From Azolla caroliniana (taxonomy: Eukaryota > Plantae > Polypodiophyta): a stretch of 64,000 bases of DNA. The notes under the pieces were generated by a model. The model was given only the letters and a program-made list of their open reading frames with translations. It was not told where the DNA came from and did not search any database. The stretch lies in the NCBI GenBank assembly GCA_043228905.1, contig JBHGNT010000020.1, positions 8,804,001-8,868,000 of the forward strand, in the 5' to 3' direction. The position numbers and the translations under genes are program-made. Of this stretch, positions 1-59,172 are shown in pieces. Position 1 is the first letter of the stretch. Every line of letters starts with the position of its first letter.

Positions 1-1515
1 GTCCGTCGTCTGCTCTATGTCCGACCTTAGCTTATAGGTAGGTATGGTCCTTGTCCTCCGAGCGGGGTCTTCGACACCAACCTTCACGGGCCGAACCGTT
101 TCTTCAACTCGTATGCTTGGCTCCCCTTTTCGGCTTGATTCTCGTTCCTCCGTTTGTAAAGGTCGACTCGTCTCCACATCGTCCTTCTTTTTCGCGTTCC
201 TTGTTTCATGTCTTTTTGATGGCCCTTGCTCTTCTATTCTCTTTCTCTTTTCTTCAACGAACACCTCGTGGTTGTCGCACATCACCACTGCGAGTATGGT
301 GTTGTCGTCCATCAGATCCGACCACCCGGTTATGCATTGCACGTTTCGGTCCGCAAGCTCTACCTCGTTCGATGTGACTTTTCCCTTCTTCTCATATTCG
401 AGAATGGAAGTCCAAAACTTTGCTCCCGCTCTAGCAGCTTCAGTCTTGTCTTTCCCGACTCTTATTCCGGCCGACGCAGCATAGTGCATCGCATCCACAT
501 GAGTCGCATCGGCATCCTCCATAGATTTCTTCATTCCTCCTCTTCCGAAATTCACCCATAGGGGTCTTCTAGTCTCGCTTGAGCAGATCATGTTGTCCTC
601 TATGTATACGATATTTTGTCGAATCGCCTCTCGAAGGCTCGCACAATCCCTTCTCATGTGGTCCATGCTATCGCACCACACGCATCTAAAGGGTTCTTTT
701 CCTTTAGGGCCCCGACGATTCATGTTGGCTAGCGTGACCTTCTCGAACTTCTTCGCTAGCTCTTCAATGATGTCGTCATCAATCTTCTTTTCTTCCACGT
801 TACTTTGTCTCGGCGGCTCAGCTACTTTCGGCGGTCTTGCTTTCTCCGTGGTAGTCGGTCCCGTCAAGTCGGTGTCATCAACCCATTGGCGACGCTTGTC
901 GAGCCTATTGCATGCCCGCTTCACCTCGATCCAGTCTGCTACGAGCCCATTTGCTTGGGTATCATCTTCGAGAAGAGTCCCCAACTCCCGTCTATCCTTT
1001 ATGTCCACGGCCTTCAAGAAGTACAAAGTCTTGTCCTCTTCAAGCAATACTTGGTCCGTATTGGGGAGACGACTAAACATTTGGTCGAATTCGTCGTACA
1101 GCCTCGAGACGCTCATCTTCTTATTCATCTTCTCTATCCACTTCATCAGGGCATGTCAAGTCATCCTCGTTGAGTCTTCAGTCACAAACTCCGCTAGTAT
1201 CGTCTTCTCGAATTCGGACCATGTTGTCTTTCCTTCTTGAAGCTCGATGACGCGTCTTTGGATGTTGTTGGCGACAACTCTCTTGAAGCTTGCGATTTGA
1301 CGTGCCTCGGACACGTCCCTTTGATTCATCTCCCTCTTATATGCATCAAGGAACTTCGTAATGTTCCTTCCATCGAATTGGCCCTCGAGCTCTATGACAC
1401 GATCGACAGCCTTCTCCACGCTCGCGTCGTTGTCCCGAGATCTCATCATTTGCTCGACGATTAGCATCATCCTTTCGAGCTCTCCTGCTTGGTTGCTTGA
1501 GGACGCCATCTCCAA
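1..1515 (-). pseudogene. Gypsy-A gag with in-frame TGA at 1156-1158
   Basis: ORF MEMASSSNQAG...FDGRNITKFLDAY is the same as 53330-53689. The frame continues after the stop and includes a CxxC...H...C knuckle. Confidence 0.85.
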
Positions 1516-1550
1516 GTATTAATCTCAACTTGATCCTTCCTACCGCCTCT

Positions 1551-1568
1551 TTCACGTCGGGTTCACCA
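1551..1568 (-). promoter_or_regulatory. Primer binding site complementary to tRNA-Trp
   Basis: Plus strand TTCACGTCGGGTTCACCA matches, from memory, the 3' 18 nt of plant cytosolic tRNA-Trp including CCA. It lies 8 nt inside the 5' LTR. Confidence 0.85.
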
Positions 1569-1576
1569 CTTTATTA

Positions 1577-2567
1577 TGTCGTGAAGATCTGTCACTACGC
1601 GCGGATCGTGAGGCGGAACCGCCGGGGTTCTGGACCAGAAGGATTTAGAGTCGATACAAGCTTTGGCGAGAAAGCACTTAAGATAGATTGGGAAAGAGAG
1701 AAGATGAGATTACACAATTGATTTGATAACGAATTTCTTGTTCTTAATTTTCATAAAAAAAACCGTGTTTTTCTCCTCCCCCTTCCCTCTTTTATAGATG
1801 CTCTCATGCATATGATGCATGTGAGGGTACAAGACATGCATAAATTGCATGTTTGTCATTTGGCGCTTAAGTATTACATGTGGTGCATGCTAACCATGTC
1901 ACTCATTTTAGTTCTCATGGATGAGAATTTACATGGAAAAGTACAATGATAGAAATATAATTTCAACTAAATATCATGGCTTAATTGTAAGCCATTTGAC
2001 TCCTAACTTGGAGGTGCAAGGTTCGAATCTATACTTGCCCTCTTTGTATATGTAAATATGTATATATTTTTATATATTTTTATATATGCCGACGCCGACG
2101 CCGGATGCCGACGCCGACGTCGGATACCGGTGCCGCATGCTGCCGCCAGATTGCCGTCAGATGCCGTCGGATCATCGCCTCCATCGCCGGTCCAGTTTTG
2201 GTTGGCCAATACCCTTTTCGAGTAGCTAGCCACCTCCACTCTAAGTTCAAGTTACCTTGAACTCTCTATGCTCCACATATAGACACAAAGATAATATCTT
2301 TTGCTCCACCTTATATATGATGAGAGCCGTATTTGTCGTGCCTATGTGGGATATCACAATTTTCTCTTTTCTTTTCACAAACTTTATACCCTCATATCTT
2401 GACATTTAGTTGTCTATTTCTCGTGTAATAAAGTGCATTCGAAACCTCCATCATTTTGTACTTAGATATTAAAAATGTTATCTTCACAATTACTTTATTA
2501 CGTGATTCATACTCGATTTTGTACGTTTTATGGGATTTTCACACCATTGCCGAAAATCTTCACGACA
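1577..2567 (-). repeat. Gypsy-A 5' LTR
   Basis: TG...CA ends with a 12-bp terminal inverted repeat TGTCGTGAAGAT/ATCTTCACGACA. Followed by ACGT (target-site copy). Confidence 0.95.
1970..2040 (+). other. tRNA-derived (SINE-head-like) segment with Pol III A and B boxes inside the Gypsy-A LTR
   Basis: A box TGGCTTAATTG at 1977, D-arm GCTT/AAGC, CTCCTAA loop, B box GGTTCGAATC at 2020. Also at 11596-11666 (-) and ~54145-54215. Confidence 0.6.
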
Positions 2568-4534
2568 ACGTGTGCATTTTATGTGTTTAAGGTCAAGTTA
2601 GTCTAGGATTATTGTATTGTTTATACCTCTCCCCCATATGTACATGTCCCCATTTAACTGGTATTCCTTTGTATATGAAGAATGTGTAAAATTTTGCCTA
2701 GAACCTAGGCTAACATATGATGACCTCATACCTAACATATGGGAACTAGTGAAGAATGGTATTAATCCCTTCATGAAGCTAGGAAAGCTAATGATAATCT
2801 TAATTAAGATGTAATTAATAAAACACATGATCCTAGCCTCTTTCATAGAAAATGTGGCCGATCTAGCATAAGACTCCAATCTAACATTGGTAATGAACAC
2901 ATAAACATGAGCCTTTCTTGAATGATCAATGATGTGATAATCTAACAACCTAATCAAACGTTTTCATTCGATCAAAGATTCTCACCAAGGTGATGATAAA
3001 ATGAGGTAGTTTGCATATTTATATCTTGAGTCAAAGACCCCTTGATCACCACTTACATGCTTACGTGTGGCAAACCATGCTAGGTTGTCTGAGACTATAG
3101 GGTAGTTATCCTTCTTGATTTATATATTTATTTATGATAGACTATTCCCATTTGGACCTAAAGCTATGTCCGTAACAAATAATTATTGAATTCATGCCAT
3201 GAACTTTGAACCCAAGCTTGAACTTGCCCACAACTAAAAATTGTTTGGTTACCATGTCTTAGATATTAAACAATGAATGTCATGGTTTTCCAACAAAAGT
3301 TTAAGAAATAGCAAAATTAATTACATTAAGTCAATGTTCTCCTTATAATATTCCTGGTGCATGTGGGACACAATGACCTCATTATTGACCCCATGTTCTT
3401 ATATTGAAGGTTCCACTAAATAAGCTTTCTTCTTTGAGAATAAAAAATACTTTTTTCTTTGTGCAAGTACAATCCTAGACACGTCAATGTTAAAGGTTTT
3501 TAATTTCTATAAACATTTGAAGTGCTTTAAGAATTACATGAAAAGAAGGATATCATCATTTGGAGTAGGTAATGTACTATCAATATGTTAAAATGCGTGT
3601 GTTTGTATATTAAAAATCTTATAGAAACATTTATGTTAAAATGTGTGTGTATACTTTGGAAATATTCTATAAACATTTGATGTACTTGAACAATAGAAGA
3701 AACATATATTATCATCAACAATCATGCATGATGTACCATAGATATGCTCTAGGAAAACACTCGAAAAGTAGGGAATCAACTTTATTGGACCCATTAATCC
3801 ACTTTCCAATCACAAGTTACAAGTTACGACCATAGATTGACATTTACGTGATATTCGTGGTATATGCCATGCGTGATATTCGCGAATACAAAATGTCCCC
3901 AAGAATATTATAAAACCATTAGTTTTTCAAAATAAATTTACATAATAAAAAATATTTAATTCACTAAAAAATTAATTAATATACTAATAATTAATTAATT
4001 AATTATGCTCACTAATAATTAATTAATTCACTATTAGAATGGTATTCCTTATAAACCAGTATGCTATTCCGTGAAGTATCCTCAACAAATTAGGAGGAAT
4101 TAATTCACTAACAATTAAATAATTAGGGTTTCTACAAAACCTTGAGTTTGTAGGCTGAGAAGAGGAAATATGGTTGCAATTAGGGTTTTGACTAAAATTT
4201 CGGGTTTTCAATTGAAACCCTAATTTTCAGACCGAGAACAAGATACAAGGGAGGTGAGGATGTAGGAGTCATGTAGGATGGAGGGGGACGCGTGGATGAG
4301 GCATCACGCACACGATGCAGGGGGAGGCGAGGATGTAGTGTAAAAAAAATGCTTTTGTTTTAAAAAAAAAAACAAAAAAACGAATACTTTTAGAAGCATT
4401 CGTATGCGTATTTGTACTATGCATTTGTGGGTCCTTCCCCATGAATGCGAATATGTCAATCTATGATCACAAACAAATACCACTACATCAAATGGGTGAA
4501 CGCAAAAAATGTGCTTTATGTAAGGGCACCCTCT

Positions 4535-10541: not shown

Positions 10542-13375
10542 CTAAATTGGGGCCCTACAACTGCGAGCATTGGGTCCTTTCCTACGACACCTTCAACAAC
10601 GATGTTCTTTCTTCTTTGTGCCTTCTTCTATTGTGCGTATACGTTTGGTTTTTAGACGTCCCGGAGGTCTTTGTGTGGCTGGTGGTAACATGCCTGGAAC
10701 AAAATTATCATGCGTAACAACAACAGGAAATATTGGCTTCTTGTAAGTATCAAAATATGATTGCAACAAATATGCCTTGTGTGCAAAAGATTGAACTCTT
10801 TCTTTTCGAAACAAAATAGCGGCCGCTGCATGTGCACAAGGTAATCCCATCTCCTGCCATTGTCCACAAGTACATATCTTCTTATCCACCTAAACAATCC
10901 TAACATGTTTCGGAGTATGGATCTCAAAAACATCATTAGTGGATGGCAAAATACGATATAGTCTTCCATCTTGTATGGATTCTATAATAAATTTCTCTGC
11001 ATATCCAACCAATGCATTATGTGTTATCTCTCCATTAACCAATCCAGTACGTTGTCGTGAAGATTTTCGGCAATAGTGTGAAAATCCTATAAAACGTACG
11101 AAATCGAGTATGAATCACGTAGTACAATAACTGTGAAGATAACATTTTAAATAGATTTAATATCTAAGTACAAAATGATGGAGGTTTCGAATGCACTTTA
11201 TTACACGAGAAACGAACAACTAAATGTCAAGATATAAGGGTATAAAGTTTGTGAAAAGAAAAGAGAAAATTGTGAGATATCCCACATAGGCACGACAAAT
11301 ACGGCTCTCATCATATATAAGGTGGAGCAAAAGATATTATCTTTGTGTCTATGTGTGGAGCATAGAGAGTTCAAGGTAACTTGAACTAAGAGTGGAGGTG
11401 GCTAGCTACTCGTAAAGGGTTTTGGCCAACCCAAACCGGACCGGCGATGGAGTCGGTGATCCGACGGCAATCCGACGTCGGTGATCCGACGACATCCGAC
11501 CGCAATCCGGAGTCGGTATCCGGCGGCGGCACCGGTATCCGGCGACTAGATAAAATAAATATATAAATATATATACATATTTACATATACAAGAAGGGCA
11601 AGTATGGATTCGAACATTGCACCTCTAGGTTAGGAGTCAAATGGCTTACCATTAAGCCATGGTATTTAGTTGAAATCATATTTCTATCATTGTACTTTTA
11701 CATGTAAATTCTCATACATGAGAGCTAAAATGAGTGAGATGGTTAGCATGCAGCACATGTAATACTTAAGCGCCAAATGGCAAACATACAATTTATGCAT
11801 GTCTTGTACCCTCACATGCATCATATGCATGAGAGCATCTATAAAAGAGGGAAGGGTGAGGAGAAAAAACACGGTTTTTTTTTATGAAAATTAAGAAGAA
11901 GAAATTCATTATCAAATCAATCGTGTAATCTCATCTTCTCTCTTTCCCAATCTATCTTAAGTGCTTTCTCGCCAAAGCTTGTATCGACTCTAAATCCTTT
12001 TGGTCCAGAACCCCGGCGGTTCCGCCTCACGATCCGCGCGTAGTGACGGATCTTCACGACAACGTGCTTTAGAAGTTTCTCCATTAACCCTCCTTTCATA
12101 AAACCATGACATTATCTTCTTGCGTATCAATTCCATCATCCCTAGAATAGGCATAGCTCTAGCCTCTAACAACCATGCATTTAGGGACTCGGCAATGTTA
12201 GATGTCAAGTGTCCAAACCTTTTCCCTCAAAACTTACATGTAGCCCAATGTGAGGGGTCGGCGATGCTCATTAGCCATTCAGTTGCATTACTATTTAAAG
12301 TACGAATTTCTCCAATGATAACATCAAAGTCTTGAGTATTAGTTGCATCTACAGCTTTCCACAACATCCCCAATAGTTGAGTGCTTTTAAAAGCTTTTCT
12401 AAAATTGTCTCATAAATGGCGCATGCAATATCCATGTGATGAATCATTGCCAAACACCAACATGACACCATCCACTAAACCCTTTTGTCTATCTGAAATA
12501 AACGTTAGTGGATCTGTGTGTCAAAGAACATCCTTCAAACTTTGAAGAAACCAACACCAATCATCATCATTCTCTACTATTACTACACCAAATGCAATCG
12601 GAACAAAGCACCTTGTGCATCGATGGTAGTAGCCGTGAGAAGGATTCCTAGGTATTTTCCTTTCAAATGAGTTCCATCTAGACCAATTATTGGTTTACAA
12701 TGCATGAAACCATTTATGCTTGCATTGTAAGCAATGAATATGCGAAGAAAGCGGCCTTCAATTGTTTCTTGAAAATGTGCCACACTACCAGGATTAGCTT
12801 CTAAAATGTTTTGGCAATAATTTCGAAGATTTTGATATGCAAATACATGTTCCCCATGGATTTGAGCATGTGCACTTTCTTTTGCTTTCCACGCTACCCT
12901 GTAAGAGATAGTGACGCCTTTTTCACGACGCACATCACCAATTAGTTCCTTTGGTGTGTATGTAGGATGATCTTTAAACTTCTCCAATGTTGTTTCAGCC
13001 AATCATTTTGAGCTTACTTCTTTGTTCCCTAAGTGTTGAGTGCCACCACATTTATGTTCTTCCCTATTCTTCTTGATTTGGCATTTTGGAATTCCGTCAA
13101 TACAAGATGCATGCAACCTCCATCGCCATCCAGAATTTTTGCATGCAATTGTTAATCTAGCAAAAGTCATGTGAGCACAAATTTAAGATTAAAAGTCAAG
13201 CGAATGTAAAAGCATATGAGTGCAAAATTCATGTGAACCTTGTTTTATCCGACTTGATCACTCTTAGCTCAACATGAGAGCCAATTGCATCATCTGTCAC
13301 AGTTTGTCGAAGCTCCTTCAAAGAGTCAAATTGCCTTCCCTCCACCAAAGCCATTCTATGAGAGACATCAAACAT
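10542..13375 (-). pseudogene. MuDR/MULE transposase copy 1, interrupted by a solo LTR
   Basis: MuDR DBD (EGRQFDSLKELR), IGLDGTHLKGKY, TSNIAESLN, SWIM CTCGQWQ..LPCAH, C-terminal zinc knuckle. Multiple stops. Confidence 0.93.
11053..12061 (+). mobile_element. Gypsy-A solo LTR with 4-bp TSD ACGT
   Basis: TGTCGTGAAGAT...ATCTTCACGACA flanked by ACGT (11049-11052, 12062-12065). The empty site CCAGT-ACGT-GCTTTAG is present in MULE copy 2 at ~34586. Confidence 0.96.
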
Positions 13376-42531: not shown

Positions 42532-44781
42532 TTATGCATGGGTGGTTGGGCTGAAGAGGTTGGCGATGGCCGAGGAGCGGAGCACAGAGAGGGCATCGGG
42601 TGACACAAGGCAGCGTGGAGTTTTGTACTGTGTGATCGTGGCGCCACTCAACATGAAGCGGTCTACGAGGCGCGAGAAAGTGCCGCGTTGCACAATGCAC
42701 AACTCCAAGGCACCGATTGTCCCCATTTTCCTTGACGTGACATACCCTGCCTCCACAAATGAGCGGTCCATCAATGCGGCGCAATCCGCCAACACGTCTG
42801 CTTGCGATATGACCCGTTGAGCTCCCATAATTGCCAGCTCGTGGTGGCTCGTGCCGTCGTATGCATGCACCTTCTTAGATGATTTTGCACATTTGTCCGC
42901 CTCGGTCGGCACTACTTCGGGCTCTCCTCCTTGAACCTCCCAGAAGACCACGTAGTGACCCGGCGTGGTCGTTCTGTCCGCGTAGCTCGTATAGTCCACC
43001 AGCTCCATGGTGCTCCTGCTCGCCTCCGCCAACTGCTTCGCCGCCCGGTCCACGACAGCTTTCAGGTCTTTCTCGGTGATCTTGTCGATGTTGAGACTGA
43101 GCATCACATTCTTCCGACAAACATACGCCACTTGTGGAGCATTGTTATAGAACCCGGTGACTCGCACGATGTCACCGAGACGGTACCTGTAGAGTCCCCA
43201 AGCCGTGGTCATGACGATTTCGTATTCTTGCCCAACTTTCACGTCGGTAAGTCCGACTGGCACTCCTTCGTCGTATGCCGCCAGGGCTGCACCCCCGCCA
43301 TTCGACATGTCGTTGATATGAGTGGATCGCGTCCTGCTCAAGGGAATGAACTCGAAGAATGCGAGCGTGGGCAAGATTGTGAAGGAGACATCGGTAGGTG
43401 TCGAAGTCGGGCCAATATTGACACCGATCCAGCCTTCAGTGGCGGCGTAGTCAGCGGACACGAGGGGTACGGCCCCGCCCGTGTAAAACTCGAGCTTCTC
43501 GACATACACCTCCATGGCACCGGTGAGGATGGACAGCACGTACTTGCAGCGCGGCCACAGGATGCGTACCGCGCCCTTCCAAGCACCGCCGGAGCCGAGA
43601 GCACGTTTCGAGGTCAAGCTGCGGCACTTGCTGGCGATCAAGTCCGCGAGCACGGGATTCGGTTTACGGAGGAGGATGTGGTCTTCCATAGCCGCCCGGA
43701 GGGTCGGGTCGGTGATCTTCTCGTTGAGCTCACCGGTGCGGATATCGTGGCAAAGGCTGCGCCACTCGGTCTCGAGTGTCCGGAGGGCTTCCACGAGTGT
43801 GAACGCGAAGGGGGCGCTGAGGACTTGGACCTCGTGCGCGTGGAAGAGGCCACACAGGAGGTGGCAGTACATGGATTGCCGGCAGTCGGGTGCGAGGATC
43901 ACGTCTTGGGGACTACACGATTGGAAACCGCTCTTTTGCTGCCTCATCCGGAATGCATCGGCACGGATCATGTGAGTGGTCGCAGTCCCGGCCTTCAAGC
44001 CGCCTTTGGTTGTCGAGAATTTCCCGCAGAAGAGGAATTCCAGGATCCGGGATCCTCCGTCCACCGGATAAATCCTGCAGATCACATCACAGATCACACC
44101 ATTAATATCTGATGAATTGAATTAGGCATTTTGAAATAGTTTTGAAACAGCAGTGAGTGAGTGAGTGAGTAGTTAATCAGGTACCGGTGCAGGTACTAAA
44201 GATTGGTTTTTAAACTTAATTTAACAAAAAAAAGTAATGATTGGAACAGGAGCTCACCCTTCTCGAAATGCTGCAGCAATGCTGGCTACCTCCAGAGTTC
44301 CTTCCTTGAGTCCTTCGTGATACAGAAGATACTTGGCTCTGGTATCAGTCGTGCCAGAGCTCAGACACAGGCCTTGGACAGGGGCTGCCGTGAGGAGGCC
44401 CCCTGGTGGCGATCCTTGGTTCCCATGCTCCGCGATCCTTTCAATGAATGGCATGATATCGGGGTGAGTAATGAGAGGAACGGTCTTCTTGAATCCATCA
44501 ATGTAATCGGTGGCGCCGCCGCCTACTACTTCAGATGCTGAGCCGATCGATGATGATGATAATGCTTCGATCCCTTGGAATTGTTGCAGATATTCGCAGC
44601 ACGCATTGTCTCGGATGATGGAGCGGAGCAAATCCGATTGAATCTCGGCTGCGTTCCTCGTGATATCTTCGAATCGATCGAGGACGGGCTGGAATCGATT
44701 GGTCTTATGGAATGGCGAGACGGGATCCGAATGAGAATTGGGAGAGAAAGAAGAAGAAGAAGAAAGTGGGCGGCCCGGCAT
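42532..44781 (-). CDS. GH3: GH3 acyl-acid amido synthetase, group I (JAR1/GH3.10-like); join(44781..44258, 44074..42532), 688 aa
   Basis: LSSGTT P-loop, ADYAATEGWIGVN, GLYRYRLGD, PGHYVVFWE, QYKTPRC. A phase-2 GT-AG intron joins the two ORFs in frame (524+1543 = 2067 nt). The start codon choice is inferred. Confidence 0.93.
44075..44257 (-). other. GH3 intron
   Basis: GG|GTGAG donor, CTGCAG|G acceptor, AT-rich. Confidence 0.85.
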
Positions 44782-44959
44782 GGTGATGAAGGCGATTTGG
44801 GAATTTCGATCGTCGATTGCGATTCAAAAGTGATGAGGAAGGCGATCAGGAGATCAAATGAGGTTACAATGAGAGGCCGATTTGGGGCTTGATTGAGTGA
44901 GTGAGTGAGTTGAGTGATGAGCATTAGCCACTCTGATTTGATCTGATCTGCTGCTACTG

Positions 44960-46914: not shown

Positions 46915-47615
46915 TACACGTGTGCATTTTATGTGTTTAAGGTCAAGTTAGTCTCGGATTATTGTATTGTTCATACCTCTCCCCCATATGTACATGTCCC
47001 CATTTAACTGGTATTCCTTTGTATATGAAGAATGTGTAAAATTTTGCCTAGAACCTAGGCTAACATATGATGACCTCATACCTAACATATGGGAACTAGT
47101 GAAGAATGGTATTAATCCCTTCATGAAGCTACGAAAGCTAATGATAATCTTAATTAAGATGTAATTAATAAAACACATGATCCTAGCCTCTTTCATAGAA
47201 AATGTGGCCAATCTAGCATAAGACTCCAATCTAACATTGGTAATGAACACATAAACATGAGCCTTTCTTGAATGATCAATGATGTGATAATCTAACAACC
47301 TAATCAAACGTTTTCATTCGATCAAAGATTCTCACCAAGGTGATGATAAAATGAGGTAGTTTGCATATTTATATCTTGAGTCAAAGACCCCTTGATCACC
47401 ACTTACATGCTTACGTGTGGCAAACCAGGGTAGTTATCCTTCTTGATTTATATATTTATTTATGATAGACTATTCCCATTTGGACCTAAAGCTATGTCCG
47501 TAACAAATAATTATTGAATTCATGCCATGAACTTTGAACCCAAGCTTGAACTTGCCCACAACTAAAAATTGTTTGGTTACCATGTCTTAGATATTAAACA
47601 ATGAATGTCATGGTT
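46915..47615 (+). repeat. AT-rich segment X carrying the empty Gypsy-A target site
   Basis: Matches 2568-3287 and 54783-55502. Here GTTAC-ACGT-GTGC has no LTR. Confidence 0.9.
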
Positions 47616-47721: not shown

Positions 47722-47967
47722 TGACGGGAACTGGTCGTTCCTTATGCCCAACGCTCGGTCACAACCGAGCTTAGAATGATACACAGAAAACGGGAAATAA
47801 AATGCGACACAAAGAAGAGACGAGGTACACAGGAGGTTTACGTGGAAAACCCCAAACTAGGGGAAAAAAAACCACGGCAGCCCACAGGCTACAAACTATC
47901 ACTATGATGGAATGTACAACCATGAGTTCACTGAGGCACCGACCTCGTGCTCACAAATCTTCGCCAC
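47722..47967 (-). repeat. Copia LTR fragment (TGACGGG subtype) fused to Gypsy-A LTR
   Basis: Matches 57134-57380, then switches to Gypsy-A LTR sequence. Confidence 0.88.
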
Positions 47968-48462
47968 CAGATTGCGGTCAGATGCCGTCGGATCACCGGC
48001 TCCATCGCCGGTCCAGTTTTGGTTGGCCAATACCCTTTTCGAGTAGCTAGCCACCTCCACTCTAAGTTCAAGTTACCTTGAACTCTCTATGCTCCACACA
48101 TAGACACAAAGATAATATCTTTTGCTCCACCGTATATATGATGAGAGCCGTATTTGTCGTGCCTATGTGGGATATCTCACAATTTTCTCTTTTCTTTTCA
48201 CAAACTTTATACCCTCATATCTTGACATTTAGTTGTCTATTTCTCGTGTAATAAAGTGCATTCGAAACCTCCATCATTTTGTACTTAGATATTAAAAATG
48301 TTATCTTCACAATTACTGTATTACGTGATTCATACTCGATTTTGTACGTTTTATGGGATTTTCACACTATTGCCGAAAATCTTCACGACATCCACCCCCA
48401 CCAAACCGCACGTCCTCCGGTACGTGCCAAGAAGAGAAGAAGTGAGATTTCGGCTACGATGA

Positions 48463-51400
48463 TCAATTAGATTCCTTCATGTCTTCATTTTCATCCAGCC
48501 TATTATGTTCATCGTCGAGGTAATCGAGATCAGGATCCTTGTCTTGTCTTTTCTTGAAAAGCTTTACTCTTTTCCCCGCAATGGGTACGGCCAACCTTGA
48601 TCCGTCTAGTTCCGCAAGGTGGTATGTGGCATTATCGTTGGCACTTGTCACCACATATGGCCCAAACCATCTTCTTGCGAACTTCCTTGTTGTACTATGT
48701 TGATTGTCAAGGGTGCTATCGTAAACTAAAACCCAATCCCCTTCTTCAATCTTCTTGGGACGAAGTCGATGCGTGTTGTCGAACCGAACTTTGTTCTTTA
48801 CTCGGGCTGCCTTCATCATCTTTCGCGCTTTTTCTAAATCTTCAGGTCTTCTTTCAAGTTGCCTTATCCGCGCCGCTAATAACTCTTCTCGGCTCATCTC
48901 GTTCCCCCACGGTATCGCTACCCATGAGGCGATCGTCCTTTCGATGGGCATAATCGGCTTTTGTCCATACATAAGCTCCGTCGGCATATACCCTATCACC
49001 GAGCTATGTGTCGTTCTATCGGCCCACAAGGCATAGGGTAATAGTCGTGGCCAATTCCCAACTCGACCGTTGCATGCCCGTACGATGGCTTTAACGATAG
49101 GTCCATGCCCTCGCTCGATCTTCCCATTTGCTTCCAGATTGTAGGCAGTCGTGAGGGAGAGCTTCACGCCTAGTCTTTCGAAGAGCTCCGTCGCTTCGTG
49201 CGCGTCCAACTCCCCTCGGTCGGCCACTATCTTCCCTACACATCCATATCGGCAAACAACATCTTCAAGTAGAAATTTGCAAACGGCTGAAGTCGTCTTA
49301 TTTGTCAAGGCTCGTCCTTCCACTTGATTTGTCAAGTCTTCCCTTGCCAACGCTAAGTACTTCATTTGTCCCACTCCCATTGGCATCGAGACCAGATCCA
49401 CCATCCATTTGAAGTGTATGGTGAGTGGGTATGTCGGCTTTAACTCATCACGATGACGTATATTTGAATATACTTGGCAAGTTTCGCATGTGGACACGAA
49501 ATGGAGTACATCTTTGTACATGCTTGGCCACCAGTACTTCTCCTTCAACTTTTCGAACGTCGCCCATGTTCCTCTATGACCTGCCCAAGCACTCTCGTGG
49601 AATTCGGTCATTAGCGTCTCTTGCTCTTCTTTCTTTACCACCACTCGACGTGGTATTCCTGTCCTTCTTTTTGGATGTCGCCAAAGGAATCCTCCCTTCA
49701 AGAAGTATCGGTAAGCTTTCTTTCGGATTCGTAGGGCCTCCTCCTTTGTCAACGAAGCATCGGTCGTCAATGTTCTTAGGAATCTACCGATGAGTAACCA
49801 CTCTCCTTCGTATTCGTTCTCGTATCTACGGTCACGTAAATTGGTTTCCCTTCGGCATAGTCGGCCTTCCTTAGTGCCGGAGCTTCAAGAAGCAGTTTCT
49901 TTAATCTTTGCATCGCCTCTGTGTGCTCGTCTCGCCATTCAAACTTTATTCTTTTCTTTAGTAGTCCATATAACGGTCCGGCGACATGAGCGTAGTGAGG
50001 AATCCATATATGGTAAAACGCGCATGCTCCAAGGAACCTTCGAACCTCCGTTTGGTTTTCGCATTCTTCTTTCATGTCTTGGATTGCGTTCACTTTGGAT
50101 GGCGAGGGCTTCCGGCCGTATGCTCCACACAAGTGACCTACCACCAAGATCTCCGGTTGCCCGAATGCGGATTTTTCTCCCGAAAATGTCAAATTCGCAT
50201 CTTCGAGCCTTTGAAGCACCTTCTCGCAATCTTTCATATGATCCGCAACGAACTTTCTACAACCTTCCTTATCTTTCGATTCATCTTTCTCCTCATCCGA
50301 ACATCCTTTTATTGGAATATCATCCAAGAATGGCATCGTGATGTCCGGAATGCAATCCTTCAAGACTTTATTCATGGCATTCACCATATGAGCCACCGAG
50401 TTCGTTGCGCCTTGGGGTAAGGTACACATCCGCACAAGCCCGATCAGAGTCCTCATGGTTGTAATGTCCCGACTGTCGATCGCCAATTGGAATTGGTCAT
50501 ATCCGGAGTAGAGATCGCCAATGGAGTAGATGGACCGGCCCGCAAACGCTTCGGCAAATTCGTCCACGCTCGGACCGATTCCGGCATTTCGAATTGTCAC
50601 CTTGTTGACGGGTTGAAGATCTTGGATGAATCGCAATGATCCATTCTTCTTCGGCACCGTGAACCACCTATTGGAATAAGGAGCATTCGACGGTTCTAGA
50701 ATTCCCATACTCACCTTCTCCTTTAAGAGCTCGATCAGCTTCGGAAGGTGTGCTCTCGGAACCGGTATCGGTTTCAAGTTCCAAGGCACATGAGGCACCG
50801 TGAAGATCACCATTGGCTCTATAACCTTTGGGTCGACGCATCCGATTTCTCGTGGGAAGAATGCGAAAGCCTTCCCATGTCTCTCAAGCATATCGCGAAA
50901 CATTCGCTCCTCTTCAGGGAGAAGGAAATCCTCCTTTCCAACTCGTAGCTTCCCCTTCGTCTCTTTGGTGAAGTCATGACCTATCTTCTTTGGATCTCTT
51001 AAGCTTGGATCGTTAGCGACTTCCTTCATCTTTTGCCAACTATCTTCCGGTAGCGGAACCGCAACTGGCTTGATCTTCTTATCCACTGTTTTATATTTCG
51101 TGTTGATGTCAGCTTCATTCATCGAGATGCCACGACGGTATTCATCGATGATAGCGTACATGTTGACGGAGTTAACCGAAATCACACGTTGGTTGTGAAG
51201 ATAGCTCAAGTCCACGACGTCCTCGATTTCGCCGATGGTGTCGTTAAATGAGGCTTCTTCCATAATATGAGTCACGAACTCTCCTTCTTCTATTATGTTC
51301 TCTTCTTTCAGCATCTTCTCGAATTCTTGTATCCGGCTCTTGTGCTTCTTGTCGGGTAGTACTAGTTTACATGCGCCACTAGGTGTGACACATGTTGCTT

Positions 51401-51494
51401 CTCCTTGCAATCCACGTGCTCTTCTTTCTTGTGGGGTCTTGTGATTGCTCGGACTATTTGTGCCCCATGCTTCAATAGTCCGCTCTAAAAATCC
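48463..51494 (-). pseudogene. Gypsy-A pol (RT, RNase H mostly deleted at ~49820, integrase)
   Basis: DLYSGYDQF, LPQGATNS, PFLDDIPIKG. INT motifs HESAWAGHRG/CETC/VDLV/ADRGE/NGKIE/WFGPY. No chromodomain. Confidence 0.92.
51432..51494 (-). promoter_or_regulatory. Predicted -1 programmed ribosomal frameshift signal
   Basis: G_GAT_TTT immediately before the ORF1 TAG, a 5-nt spacer, stem CGGACTATT/AATAGTCCG, and loop TGGGG complementary to downstream CCCCA. The -1 frame is open into RT. Confidence 0.8.
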
Positions 51495-53689
51495 GAGGAT
51501 TCGCCTCCGAGACTATCTCGATTCCTTTCATGATTGGCTCGCACTGTTAGGAATTGGACCGATCTTTGGTTGTCAAGACTCTTTATTCGTGCGAAGGCTG
51601 CTCCATTATCGAACACTTTGGTCTCCATCCGAGATGATGTGATATAAGGTTGCCCTAGGATGACAAGATGCGATGTCGATTCTTGTACGAAGAAGTGTTG
51701 ATCCATCTCCACATCCCCGATCGTGACTTTGACATTGGGACAAGCTCCGTACAAGTCCTCCGTAGACTTTGTTGCCGCGCGAATCTTCCATCTGTGGTTT
51801 GTATTAATTGGCCATCTTCCCTTTTTGTAGAAGTCGGTTGACATGAGGTTGATCTCCGAGCCGTGGTCGATCAAGGCTACGACGGTCTCTTTCTTCTCCC
51901 CGATCTTCACCGGCGTCTCCGTTGTCGCTCGTGCCCAATGAGGTCGAGTGTAGTGGCTGTCCACCATATCTTCATCGATTTCGTCTCTTGCCATCGTTAT
52001 GGCATTCGTTTTTGCTTTCTGCGGCTTCTCTTCTTCCTCGTCCGATTGTTGTCTCTTTCTCTTTACAAGGTCCACGATCGTGTCATGGAACTCCTTCTTC
52101 GTAATGCCAAGCAATTCCCTCAAGGACAAAGTTACATGGCTATCAAGAACTCGTTCTTCGAGAATCTTCTTTAGGTCCGTCGTCTGCTCTATGTCCGACC
52201 TTAGCTTATAGGTAGGTATGGTCCTTGTCCTCCGAGCGGGGTCTTCGACACCAACCTTCACGGGCCGAACCGTTTCTTCAACTCGTATGCTTGGCTCCCC
52301 TTTTCGGCTTGATTCTCGTTCCTCCGTTTGTAAAGGTCGACTCGTCTCCACATCGTCCTTCTTTTTCGCGTTCCTTGTTTCATGTCTTTTTGATGGCCCT
52401 TGCTCTTCTATTCTCTTTCTCTTTTCTTCAACGAACACCTCGTGGTTGTCGCACATCACCTCTGCGAGTATGGTGTTGTCGTCCATCGGATCCGACCACC
52501 CGGTTATGCATTGCACGTTTCGGTCCGCAAGCTCTACCTCGTTCGATGTGACTTTTCCCTTCTTCTCATATTCGAGAATGGAAGTCCAAAACTTTGCTCC
52601 CGCTCTAGCAGCTTCAGTCTTGTCTTTCCCGACTCTTATTCCGGCCGACGCAGCATAGTGCATCGCATCCACATGAGTCGCATCGGCATCCTCCATAGAT
52701 TTCTTCATTCCTCCTCTTCCGAAATTCACCCGTAGGGGTCTTCTAGTCTCGCTTGAGCAGATCATGTTGTCCTCTATGTATACGATATTTTGTCGAATCG
52801 CCTCTCGAAGGCTCGCACAATCCCTTCTCATGTGGTCCATGCTATCGCACCACACGCATCTAAAGGGTTCTTTTCCTTTAGGGCCCCGACGATTCATGTT
52901 GGCTAGCGTGACCTTCTCGAACTTCTTCGCTAGCTCTTCAATGATGTCATCATCAATCTTCTTTTCTTCCACGTTACTTTGTCTCGGCGGCTCAGCTACT
53001 TTCGGCGGTCTTGCTTTCTCCGTGGTAGTCGGTCCCGTCAAGTCGGTGTCATCAACCCATTGGCGACGCTTGTCGAGCCTATTGCATGCCCGCTTCACCG
53101 CGATCCAGTCCGCTACGAGCCCATTTGCTTGGGTATCATCTTCGAGAAGAGTCCCCAACTCCCGTCTATCCTTTATGTCCACGGCCTTCAAGAAGTACAA
53201 AGTCTTGTCCTCTTCAAGCAATACTTGGTCCGTATTGGGGAGACGACTAAACATCTGGTCGAATTTGTCGTACACCCTCGAGACGCTCATCTTCTTATTC
53301 TTCTTCTCTATCCACTTCATCAGGGCATGTCAAGTCATCCTCGTTGAGTCTTCAGTCACGAACTCCGCTAGTATCGTCTTCTCGAATTCGGACCATGTTG
53401 TCTTTCCTTCTTGAAGCTCGATGACGCGTCTTTGGATGTTGTTGGCGACAACTCTCTTGAAGCTTGCGATTTGACGTGCCTCGGACACGTCCCTTTGATT
53501 CATCTCCCTCTTATATGCATCAAGGAACTTCGTAACGTTCCTTCCATCGAATTGGCCCTCGAGCTCTACGACACGATCGACAGCCTTCTCCACGCTCGCG
53601 TCGTTGTCCCGAGATCTCATCATTTGCTCGACGATTAGCATCATCCTTTCGAGCTCTCCTGCTTGGTTGCTTGAGGACACCATCTCCAA
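51485..53689 (-). pseudogene. Gypsy-A ORF1: gag + aspartic protease, one in-frame TGA (53330-53332)
   Basis: CVWCDSMDHMRRDC knuckle, ALIDHGSEINLM protease, ILGQPY; ends ...SSDF*. Confidence 0.9.
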
Positions 53690-53750
53690 GTATTAATCTC
53701 GACTTGATCCTTCCTACCGCCTCTTTCACGTCGGGTTCACCACTTTATTA

Positions 53751-54782
53751 TGTCGTGAAGATCCGTCACTACGCGCGGATCGTGAGGCGGAACCGCCGGG
53801 GTTCTGGACCAGAAGGATTTAGAGTCGATACAAGCTTTGGCGAGAAAGCACTTAAGATAGATTGGGAAAGAGAGAAGATGAGATTACACAATTGATTTGA
53901 TAACGAATTTCTTGTTCTTAATTTTCATAAAAAAAACCGTGTTTTTCTCCTCCCCCTTCCCTCTTTTATAGATGCTCTCATGCATATGATGCATGTGAGG
54001 GTACAAGACATGCATAAATTGCATGTTTGCCATTTGGCGCTTAAGTATTACATGTGGTGCATGCTAACCATGTCACTCATTTTAGTTCTCATGGATGAGA
54101 ATTTACATGTAAAAGTACAATGATAGAAATATAATTTCAACTAAATATCATGGCTTAATTGTAAGCCATTTGACTCCTAACTTGGAGGTGCAAGGTTCGA
54201 ATCTATACTTCCCCTCTTTGTATATGTAAATATGTATATATTTTTATATATTTTTATATATGCCGACGCCGACGCCGGATGCCGTCATCGGATGCCGACG
54301 CCGGATACCGACGCCGGATACCGGTGCCGACGTCGGATACCGGTGCCGCATGCTGCCGCCATATTGCCGTCGGATGCCGTCGGATCATCGGCTCCATCGC
54401 CGGTCCAGTTTTGGTTGGACAAAACCCTTTTCGAGTAGCTAGCCACCTCCACTCTAAGATCAAGTTACCTTGAACTCTCTATGCTCCACATATAGACACA
54501 AAGATAATATCTTTTGCTCCACCTTATATATGATGAGAGCCGTATTTGTCGTGCCTATGTGGGATATCTCACAATTTTCTCTTTTCTTTTCACAAACTTT
54601 ATACCCTCATATCTTGACATTTAGTTGTCTATTTCTCGTGTAATAAAGTGCATTCGAAACCTCCATCATTTTGTACTTAGATATTAAAAATGTTATATTC
54701 ACAATTACTGTATTACGTGATTCATACTCGATTTTGTACGTTTTATGGGATTTTCACACCATTGCCGAAAATCTTCACGACA
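53751..54782 (-). repeat. Gypsy-A 5' LTR
   Basis: 12-bp terminal inverted repeat; followed by ACGT. Confidence 0.95.
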
Positions 54783-57133: not shown

Positions 57134-59172
57134 TGACGGGAACTGGTTGTTCCTTATGCGCAACGCTCGGCCACAACCGAGCTTAGAATGATACACAGAA
57201 AACGGGAAATAAAACGCGACACAAAGAAGAGACGAGGTACACAGGAGGTTTACGTGGAAAACCCCAAACTAGGGGGAAAAAAACCACGGCAGCCCACAAG
57301 CTACAAACTATAACTATGATGGAATGTACAACCATGAGTTCACTGAGGCAACGACCTCGTGCTCACAGATCTTCGCCACAGGCAGCGGTTACAACAGAGG
57401 CAACGACCTCTTTCTCTCTCTCTCTCTCTCTCTCTGTACAGTTACACACACTCTCTATTCTTGCACCAACAAGAATGACAACAACAACAACAACAACAGT
57501 AATAAGAGTTACTAAAATTTTGCCCTAAGTCATATTTATACTAATATGACTTTTCGGCTATTTACAAATGTAGCCGCGATGGACTATCTAAAAACATATT
57601 TACTAATATGTCTCTTCATCCGGTTCTCCGTAACCGGGTACTCCTCATCCGGTCTTCCCCGGGTCTGCATCATCCGGCTCTCCGTAGCCGAGTACTCCTC
57701 ATTCGGTTCATACCGGGTCTACACCATCCGGCCCTTTGTAGCCGGGTACTCCTCATCCGGTCTTCACCGGGTCTGCATCATCCGGCTCTCCATAGCCGGG
57801 TACTCCTCATCCGTTCTCCCTTCCCATCCGGAGTTTGTTCATCCGCACTGTTCTTCTCCCTTCCCATCCGGAGGGACCTGTCTCCCAACAAACTCCCCCT
57901 TCACTCCGGCATGGGGTGTCTTACTAGTCCGATTCTCTTCCGGCATGCATCCAGCTTGTTGGGTATCAGCACTTTGGTCAGCATATCTGACCCGTTCTCG
58001 GCCGTGTGGATCTTCATCAACGCGAACTCCTGGTCATCTACTCTTTCCCGGGTCCAGTGATATCTTCGCTGGATATGCTTCGTCCGAGAATGGTAGGCCG
58101 CATTCTTAGCAAGGTGGATGGGACTTTGATTGTCGCAATAGAGTCGGTATTCCTCTTACTGGATACCGAGCTCTCGGATGAAGTCCTTCATCCATAATAT
58201 TTCCTTGCCGGCTTCCACTGCCGCCATGTACTCCGCCTCTGTGGTTGACAATGCAACCATCTTCTGCAGCCTCGACTACCACAAAACGGCTCCCCCTGCA
58301 TATGTCATTACATACTCGGAAGTAGACCGGCTGGTATCCACATCAGCCGACATGTCTGAATCGGTGAAACCGTCAAGTTGAGGTATTCCGGAGCCGAATC
58401 GGAGACACATATTTGAAGTGCCCTTCAAATATCGGAGTATCCATTTGACCGCGTTCTAGTGCTCCTTGCCGGGATTGCTCATAAACCGGCTCACCACTCC
58501 GACTGCGTATCCTATGTCCGGTCCGGTACAAACCATTGCGTACATCAAGCTCCCGACGGCAGAGGCATATGGAATCTTCATCATATCCGCCTTCTCTGCT
58601 TTCGTCTTCGGGCTTTGCTTACCGGATAGCTTGGAGTTTGCCTGAAGTGTCGATCCGACCGGTTTTGCTTTTGACATGTTGAATCGGTGAAGCACCTTTG
58701 TCACGTACTTCTCCTGTGACAGCCATAATTGCTTCTTTGACCGGTCCTGAATGATATGCATCCCAACATCTGTCTTGCCAGACCCAAGTCTTTCATTGAG
58801 AAGGTCCGGTTGAGAGCCTTCTTCAGCATCCGTATTTTGACTTGGTCACGTCCGACGATCAACATGTCATCCACGTACAGAAGGAGTAACAGGAAGTCGC
58901 CTCCTTCGAACTTCTTCACAAACACGCAGTGATCGGCCTGCGTCTTGTGGTACCCTTGAGCGGTCATGAAGGAGTCGAACTTCCGGTACCATTGACGGGG
59001 AGCCTGCTTCAGTCCGTACAGGCTCTTCTTCAACCGGCATACCAGGTGCTCCTTCCCTTTCTCCACGAATCCTTCTGGTTGCTGCATGTAGATCTCCTCT
59101 TCAAGGTCGCCGTGAAGGAATGCCGTCTTCACGTCCAACTGCTCTACCTCGAGGTCCATGCTTGCTGCTATA
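57134..59172 (-). mobile_element. Truncated Copia (3' LTR 57134-57890, RH/RT fragment)
   Basis: Paralog of 4535-6333. Fused at 59172 to an accessory-ORF fragment (59173-59771). Confidence 0.92.

Follow-up and report, generated by a model that had tools for sequence, protein, structure and literature searches.

A candidate programmed −1 ribosomal frameshift between protease and reverse transcriptase in Phygy-like Ty3/gypsy retrotransposons

A Phygy-like family of Ty3/gypsy retrotransposons, one copy of which lies in a 64,000-nucleotide stretch of Azolla caroliniana DNA (the window), probably joins its Gag–protease (PR) frame to its reverse transcriptase (RT)–RNase H (RH)–integrase (INT) frame by programmed −1 ribosomal frameshifting, a reading to which we give a probability of about 0.87. 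Judged from the aligned sequences, the slippery heptamer, the stop codon behind it, the 5-nt spacer, the hairpin and the frame offset are all kept across the family. Recoding of this kind had been proposed for RT–INT in an earlier note on this DNA, and the comparisons described below support it.

In the proposed mechanism, ribosomes translating ORF1 would meet the heptamer G_GAU_UUU with a hairpin or pseudoknot at the entry channel. The majority would terminate, releasing Gag-PR, while a minority would pause at the hairpin, slip back one base after Asp-Phe and read Leu next. The shifted ribosomes would then cross a linker of about 125 residues to make the full Gag-PR-RT-RH-INT polyprotein. Slippage may occur in tandem, or may involve tRNA-Phe alone with the stop codon in the A site; the product would be the same either way. 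The stop adjoining the heptamer may prolong the pause, an effect reported for pea enation mosaic virus (PEMV). Protease would thus be made one-to-one with Gag, with RT and integrase rationed.

In the window copy, which is read on the minus strand, ORF1 ends TCG (51496-51494), GAT (51493-51491), TTT (51490-51488), TAG (51487-51485), base for base as the earlier note had it. The heptamer contained in this ending is an imperfect form of X_XXY_YYZ and a known non-canonical shift site; it sits in the 0 frame inside a 28-nt overlap between ORF1 and pol. The −1 frame opens six codons 5′ of the heptamer and has no stop from 51512 to 49776, with RT inside it (Pfam match). Five nucleotides past the heptamer begins a perfect 9-bp stem (51482-51474 with 51458-51450), closed by a 15-nt loop. 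Both the stop-free −1 frame from the heptamer into RT and the perfect stem had been read correctly beforehand. Slippery-type heptamers number 557 on the two strands of the window, and nine of them have a perfect 9-bp stem behind; eight of the nine are A/T-run sites on the plus strand, and the sole minus-strand one is the ORF1/pol junction. The features of the element are collected in Table 1.

Table 1. Features of the Phygy-like element, its frame junction and related copies in the window
Feature	Positions	Strand	Basis or remark
5′ LTR, 1032 nt, 10-nt terminal inverted repeats, ACGT before	53751..54782	-	sequence comparison
Primer-binding site	53726..53742	-	sequence
ORF1: Gag, DUF4100 region, aspartic protease, ~732 codons	51485..53683	-	broken by in-frame TGA
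Aspartic protease	51647..51913	-	weak match to Pfam PF13650, E 0.02; DHGS invariant in 36 aligned sequences
Pol frame: 28-nt overlap with ORF1, ~125-codon linker, RT, start of RNase H	49776..51512	-	−1 to ORF1
Slippery heptamer G_GAU_UUU	51488..51494	-	sequence; same in 16/18 junction-spanning relatives
ORF1 stop, adjoining 3′ side of heptamer	51485..51487	-	TAG here; TAA, TAG or TGA in relatives
Stem 1, 5′ arm, behind 5-nt spacer	51474..51482	-	folding, alignment of relatives
Stem 1, 3′ arm	51450..51458	-	folding, alignment of relatives
Loop G-run, putative 5′ side of pseudoknot stem 2	51463..51467	-	four G invariant in 17/17 aligned sequences
C-run, putative 3′ side of pseudoknot stem 2	51432..51436	-	conserved, without compensatory change
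Deletion point, ~460 nt of RNase H gone relative to L010	49819..49821	-	comparison with L010
Integrase: zinc-binding, core and SH3-like parts	48463..49820	-	profile matches
G-rich polypurine-tract-like stretch before 3′ LTR	48391..48402	-	sequence
3′ LTR, ends after 428 nt, 97.2% identical to 5′ LTR	47963..48390	-	sequence comparison
Solo LTR of the same family, ACGT on both sides	11053..12061	+	4-bp NCGN target duplication
Second partial copy (flank, 5′ LTR, gag) in segmental duplication	1..2585	-	window ends before its junction

The element has the two LTRs, primer-binding site, polypurine tract and domain order (GAG-PR-RT-RH-INT) of Ty3/gypsy, with RNase H largely deleted in the window copy; domains and LTRs together confirm the earlier description of a Gypsy element with its junction between protease and RT. 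RNase H is present in the related loci L007, L010-L012, L014 and L025. The window copy is dead, with an in-frame TGA in gag (53332-53330) as well as the RNase H deletion, yet its frameshift signal is intact. Two segmental duplications involve this locus: positions 1-2585 repeat the element's flank, 5′ LTR and gag at 97.4% identity, in-frame stop included, and 46918-47600 holds that flank with no element inserted, an empty ACGT site. At 47900-47963 the cut 3′ LTR runs into a repeat that is also found at 57379 and 61466, beside Copia-type RT fragments. Elsewhere in the window (4748-61941), a 54-nt tandem unit forms several clusters, with 17 family members, apparently inside Copia-type elements, and the minus strand at 42532-44823 holds a gene for a GH3 family acyl-amido synthetase (Pfam GH3, GH3_M, GH3_C), likely auxin- or jasmonate-conjugating.

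The available portions of Neumann et al. 2019 (PMC6317226) give the Phygy clade, among the non-chromovirus Ty3/gypsy elements, a 4-bp NCGN target duplication, a tRNA-Trp primer in 81% of elements, a length of 7656-9968 bp, and no chromodomain, extra domain or extra ORF; in REXdb its ORF organisation is entered as ‘ND’, and the clade is called specific to Physcomitrella. In target duplication, size and domain content our element appears to fit this clade. ACGT flanks the solo LTR, occupies the empty site and precedes the 5′ LTR of the main copy, which no longer has its 3′ flank and shows ACGT on one side only. The inferred full length of about 7.9 kb (2 x 1032 + 5360 + ~460) falls within the Phygy range. 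The coding region fills the interior, with no extra domain or extra ORF, and no chromodomain match was found in the integrase region. The primer-binding site (53742-53726) probably matches plant tRNA-Trp; the window contains no tRNA gene to compare it with. Physcomitrium proteins are among the close ORF1 homologues, and those homologues that carry a species name belong to Physcomitrium patens, Riccia sorocarpa, R. fluitans and Adiantum nelumboides. Because the tRNA-Trp match is only probable and the RT tree covers no Phygy reference, the name Phygy-like is used here. In contrast to Phygy as listed, Gag-PR in this family overlaps RT-RH-INT in the −1 frame, and relatives also occur in Riccia and Adiantum.

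The offset and the heptamer recur among relatives. There are 25 distinct related loci, 24 from metagenome contigs and one (L025) from genome contigs; L026 and L027, on the same contig as L025, and L028, a gag-only piece, are not counted as distinct. Eighteen of the loci span the junction and seven do not. Wherever a locus extends into RT (15 loci, protease identity 58-93%), RT is in the −1 frame, and GGATTTT is followed directly by TAA, TAG or TGA at 16 of the 18 junction-spanning loci; since the 24 metagenome loci belong to one accession series and about four lineages, and the junction-spanning loci to about five, these counts are not independent. The alignment of relatives that the earlier note had named as a check on the offset has come out in its favour. 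One of the two exceptions, L009, has AGATTTT and a broken stem in a rearranged locus; in the other, L017, a deletion took the heptamer, the stop and the 5′ arm of the stem, and a stop follows about 30 codons later. At L017:1255-1363, where coverage is low, this short deletion sets the linker in frame with protease, and a second frame break and a stop come after it. L025 (G001:C92) is probably a Phygy-like plant contig binned into a cyanobacterial metagenome assembly; among 401 prokaryote genomes around G001, a match was found in G001 only. Searches of viral contigs with a single-protein or an alignment query returned no relative.

In the relatives the nearest upstream block in the −1 frame lies 2, 6 or 18 codons before the heptamer, leaving only a small overlap in which the frame could be switched. 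Over the 370 nt past the stop, the −1 frame has no stops and each other frame has 6-13, in eight of eight sequences tested. At four loci (L007, L010, L011 and L012) ORF1 runs uninterrupted through 745-771 codons and the −1 frame meets no stop before the locus ends; the junction is thus their only break.

Constraint at the junction also extends to the third codon positions. NNG GAT TTT forms the last three ORF1 codons in all five lineage representatives. At upstream conserved residues of the same five, the third base is invariant in 5 of the 15 columns with two-fold degeneracy and in 2 of the 32 with a higher one, and the product of these third-base rates puts the joint chance of an invariant NNG GAT TTT at roughly 0.007. 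Variants were also sought in contigs of reads from four runs in two studies (organism codes A, C, D and E, with 287, 83, 105 and 192 pieces); no RNA data set was listed among the sequencing runs, of which X19 is flagged as probably DNA. In these contigs, which drop rare variants and include two listed pieces with gaps, the variants at a frequency of at least 2% near the junction comprise 17 substitution entries and no indel. The heptamer and both the G-run and the C-run are free of listed variants at that frequency, and the sole stop-codon variant yields another stop. A wider scan of 1001 bases gave at least 120 substitution entries and, among the variants listed, one rare insertion, at 51540.

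The RNA downstream of the heptamer is predicted to form a hairpin. A 48-nt piece containing stem 1 folds at −15.9 kcal/mol (z = −4.7), equalled by none of 200 shuffles; longer pieces fold less distinctly (81 nt, z −1.5; 88 nt, z −2.5). In a gap-free alignment of 17 junction sequences, 13 of them distinct and with L013 and L017 excluded, stem 1 is paired in 94.9% of cells, against 35-56% for slid controls. Both sides have changed at four of its nine pairs, mostly owing to the one distant locus L025, where a 12-bp stem of sequence unlike the others stands at the junction. The covariation score is reached by none of 500 shuffles, a control that ignores relatedness. A spacer of 5-6 nt followed by a predicted stem of 8-12 bp is found in the window copy and at 15 of the 16 loci folded, the exception being L009. 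The hairpin is well supported, by prediction and by covariation. A search of Rfam with the junction RNA gave no match at E up to 10.

The H-type pseudoknot suggested earlier has fared less evenly. The loop TGGGG (51467-51463) and the downstream CCCCA (51436-51432) are complementary in the window copy as claimed, but across relatives only the four G-C pairs hold; the fifth pair (U-A) is unpaired in 4 of the 13 distinct sequences. Over the 17 junctions stem 2 is paired in 87.7% of cells and has compensatory pairs at none of its five positions, so the covariation looked for in both stems is present in stem 1 and absent from stem 2. The position of the C-run is constant within one base and the residues that it encodes vary (Thr-Pro, Ser-Pro, Ser-Leu, Pro-Leu or Pro-Gln); in L025 the matching C-run is displaced 9 nt further downstream. 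Pairing of the grade of stem 2 is present by background in 7-40% of other 40-nt windows. Of 16 pol proteins whose N-termini are long, 9 have Trp-Gly or Arg-Gly, the residues encoded by the G-run, close to their start. With stem 1 conserved and compensated, and stem 2 conserved without compensatory change, the pseudoknot is plausible and not established; we lean slightly towards a structure held by the four G-C pairs.

Protein collections offer a second view of the junction. Among 120 ORF1 homologues listed, 115 reach the end of protease, and in 98 of these ORF1 ends no more than six residues from DF (89), GF (6) or VF (3). The ending is exactly DF in 64 of the 115 and DF plus five residues in 24. 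The residue before DF, GF or VF is in no case (0/98) one whose codons are unable to end in G; the background for this rule, about 29% of nearby residues, was drawn from a set of 97 homologues. The remaining 17 comprise 14 eukaryotic gene models that run on and three proteins that stop short. For pol, 120 long homologues were compared, 81 of them plain ORF calls. Protease is carried by none of the 66 calls with an RT score of at least 550 bits and by 4 of the 15 weaker ones; among the relatives compared, the refuting condition set in the earlier note, protease and RT in one frame in most intact members, did not hold. A FastTree phylogeny of RT (113 sequences, a Colletotrichum protein as root, 8 short rows excluded) appears to place the four protease-bearing calls outside the main clade, near fungal entries.

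Splicing offers the best-surviving alternative to frameshifting, although we consider it improbable. An Ogre-like intron, removed from some transcripts, would join protease to RT, and the heptamer and hairpin would be otherwise employed, for example in splicing control. The RT of Ogre elements is described as being expressed in this way in the accessible text of PMC6317226, and among eukaryotic gene models 32 of 39, including those of Riccia and Physcomitrium, do join protease to RT. The 24 long gene models, however, break off from protease anywhere between query positions 103 and 148 (of 151) and resume at many separate sites, and not one of them continues past the complete terminal motif into the linker. 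Such scattered joins are as expected of predicted introns bridging a frameshift. Nor do the ORFs leave room for a spacer: they overlap, and the −1 frame is stop-free from heptamer to RT.

Two further rivals, both very unlikely and about equally so, dispense with either the slip or the ribosome. Pol might be made alone, with translation starting at an internal codon or on a subgenomic RNA, and ORF1 simply ending where it does; gene callers do report a separate pol ORF of some 1020-1280 residues. The −1 frame, however, has its first Met at codon 9, 19, 41, 61 or 112 depending on the lineage, the frame is open upstream of it back to the heptamer, and the invariant heptamer is left unexplained. 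Alternatively, RNA polymerase might slip on the five T of the heptamer/stop region and add a base, bringing some transcripts into frame. These five T are indeed invariant in 17 of 17 aligned sequences. A run of five T is nevertheless short for transcriptional slippage, conservation extends to the G-G-A before it and to a hairpin at a distance suited to ribosomes, and roughly one homologue in four has its stop five codons later. Finally, a 1-nt indel private to one dead copy, beside a hairpin that arose by chance, for which the decay of the window copy and the existence of distant single-ORF relatives might speak, is contradicted by the offset shared among the related loci (four of them without any other break), by the four runs in which no indel is listed and by the unfused pol ORF calls, and can be all but dismissed.

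Single-ORF relatives occur at a distance (P0182, P0372, P0373 and P0377). P0182, with 46% protease identity, has one open Gag-PR-RT-RH-INT frame and keeps Ala-Asp-Phe at the usual place of the shift, so part of the Asp-Phe conservation could be at the level of protein. It lies just outside the main clade and represents either an ancestral state or a copy with an added base. In a more distant ORF1 set of 134 listed proteins, 73 reach the end of protease. Endings of the terminal DF or GF type are found in 32 of these, none of which violates the G rule; the other 41 include gene models, fragments and a few proteins with NF or EF. GF endings, such as the six in the closer set, would fit a canonical heptamer, G_GGU_UUU. 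Three distant ORF1 proteins (P0188, P0214 and P0227) end Glu/Ala-Asn-Phe, which could be encoded by the canonical A_AAU_UUU. In distant members the heptamer at this position may have been exchanged for another (G_GGU_UUU, possibly A_AAU_UUU). Whether the whole Phygy-like lineage of mosses, liverworts and ferns uses an umbravirus-type G_GAU_UUU pseudoknot shift after protease, one that either pre-dates the split of these plant groups or has spread between them, we regard as an even chance on the sequences compared.

Within the literature searched, a clade-wide overlapping −1 frameshift after protease would be new among plant retrotransposons. The open-licence texts covered held no description of the Phygy-like post-protease junction, and database entries or supplements could hold one. 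In PMC7466625 no ORF layout is given for RLG2 and RLG3, and the term Phygy does not occur. A search of the ESM Atlas with the linker returned an unnamed best match (score 0.87) and offered no lead. If the frameshift is real, it would fill the entry for Phygy that REXdb marks as not determined; if it also extends to the whole lineage, an RSV-like strategy (RSV, Rous sarcoma virus) would have been reached independently from single-ORF relatives of the fungal kind. Annotation pipelines would be seen to take the junction for a decay mutation or to invent introns, as the differing joins of the 24 gene models suggest, so that intact members are likely miscounted as dead. At about 65 nt and with natural variants to hand, the junction would also be a convenient small cassette in which to study −1 frameshifting, and what a directly following stop codon does, on plant ribosomes. 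It raises the question of how a particle with one protease per Gag avoids premature self-cutting.

Among plant elements, the closest parallels in layout are found in PMC6317226, as far as its available text goes. Ogre and Retand (Tat) share a coding region split into GAG-PROT and then RT-RH-INT; in Ogre, however, the two parts are separated by a spacer of about 274 nt that has proved to be an intron, and in Retand by one in-frame stop. An additional aRH domain is present in both, whereas the close pol proteins of the present family contain the RT, RH and INT families only, and neither is listed there as having overlapping frames. Tcn1 and Selgy, from seed-free plants, do have two overlapping ORFs in different frames (PMC6317226, Additional file 5), but their overlap lies between GAG and PROT, upstream of protease, as it does in some SIRE elements. 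A 2016 review, in the part available, cites a 2003 survey (Gao et al.) for only two plant element types with separate frames, both of them +1. For Arabidopsis Copia elements splicing is the strategy described in the accessible part of PMC5580714. The portions available of PMC5014426 and PMC4139406 neither support nor refute a link to Yarrowia Ylt1 or Candida Tca3. Membership of Ogre was considered for our element and rejected: its ORFs overlap, its linker is open and no aRH family is listed. The earlier note had most plant LTR elements with a single gag-pol frame; a break between protease and RT is nothing exceptional in plants, as Ogre and Retand show, and it is the overlapping −1 version that is new in the literature searched.

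The shift sequence of RSV differs from G_GAU_UUU. The likeness between the two systems lies in their layout: in RSV and its relatives (ASLV) protease is made with Gag and a single −1 shift reaches RT and integrase (PMC12789967, PMC5009743, both available in part). RSV protease is placed in Gag by PMC12789967, while the wording of PMC5009743 has it released from GagPol. RSV is an unrelated retrovirus with an envelope gene, its stimulator is a pseudoknot and its frameshifting has been measured, at about 5%; the Phygy-like pseudoknot is a candidate only and the shift is predicted from sequence.

In its signal, the Phygy-like junction most resembles those of PEMV and other umbraviruses. The available text of PMC4737148 describes a tested −1 site in PEMV RNA2 in which G_GAU_UUU precedes a spacer of 5 nt and a stop, of whichever type, lies close by, and reports that changing the stop to a sense codon lowered frameshifting more than three-fold; the claim that some plant RNA viruses use GGAUUUU is borne out, for PEMV and for other umbravirus sites. 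Heptamer, spacer length and a stop close behind are shared with the Phygy-like family. In PEMV, however, the stop lies 3 nt past the heptamer, whereas the Phygy-like stop is usually adjacent to it, and the PEMV stimulator is a long bulged hairpin with long-distance pairing, in contrast to the predicted 9-bp hairpin or local pseudoknot of the Phygy-like elements. The product of the shift in umbraviruses is the RdRp; in the Phygy-like family it would be RT.
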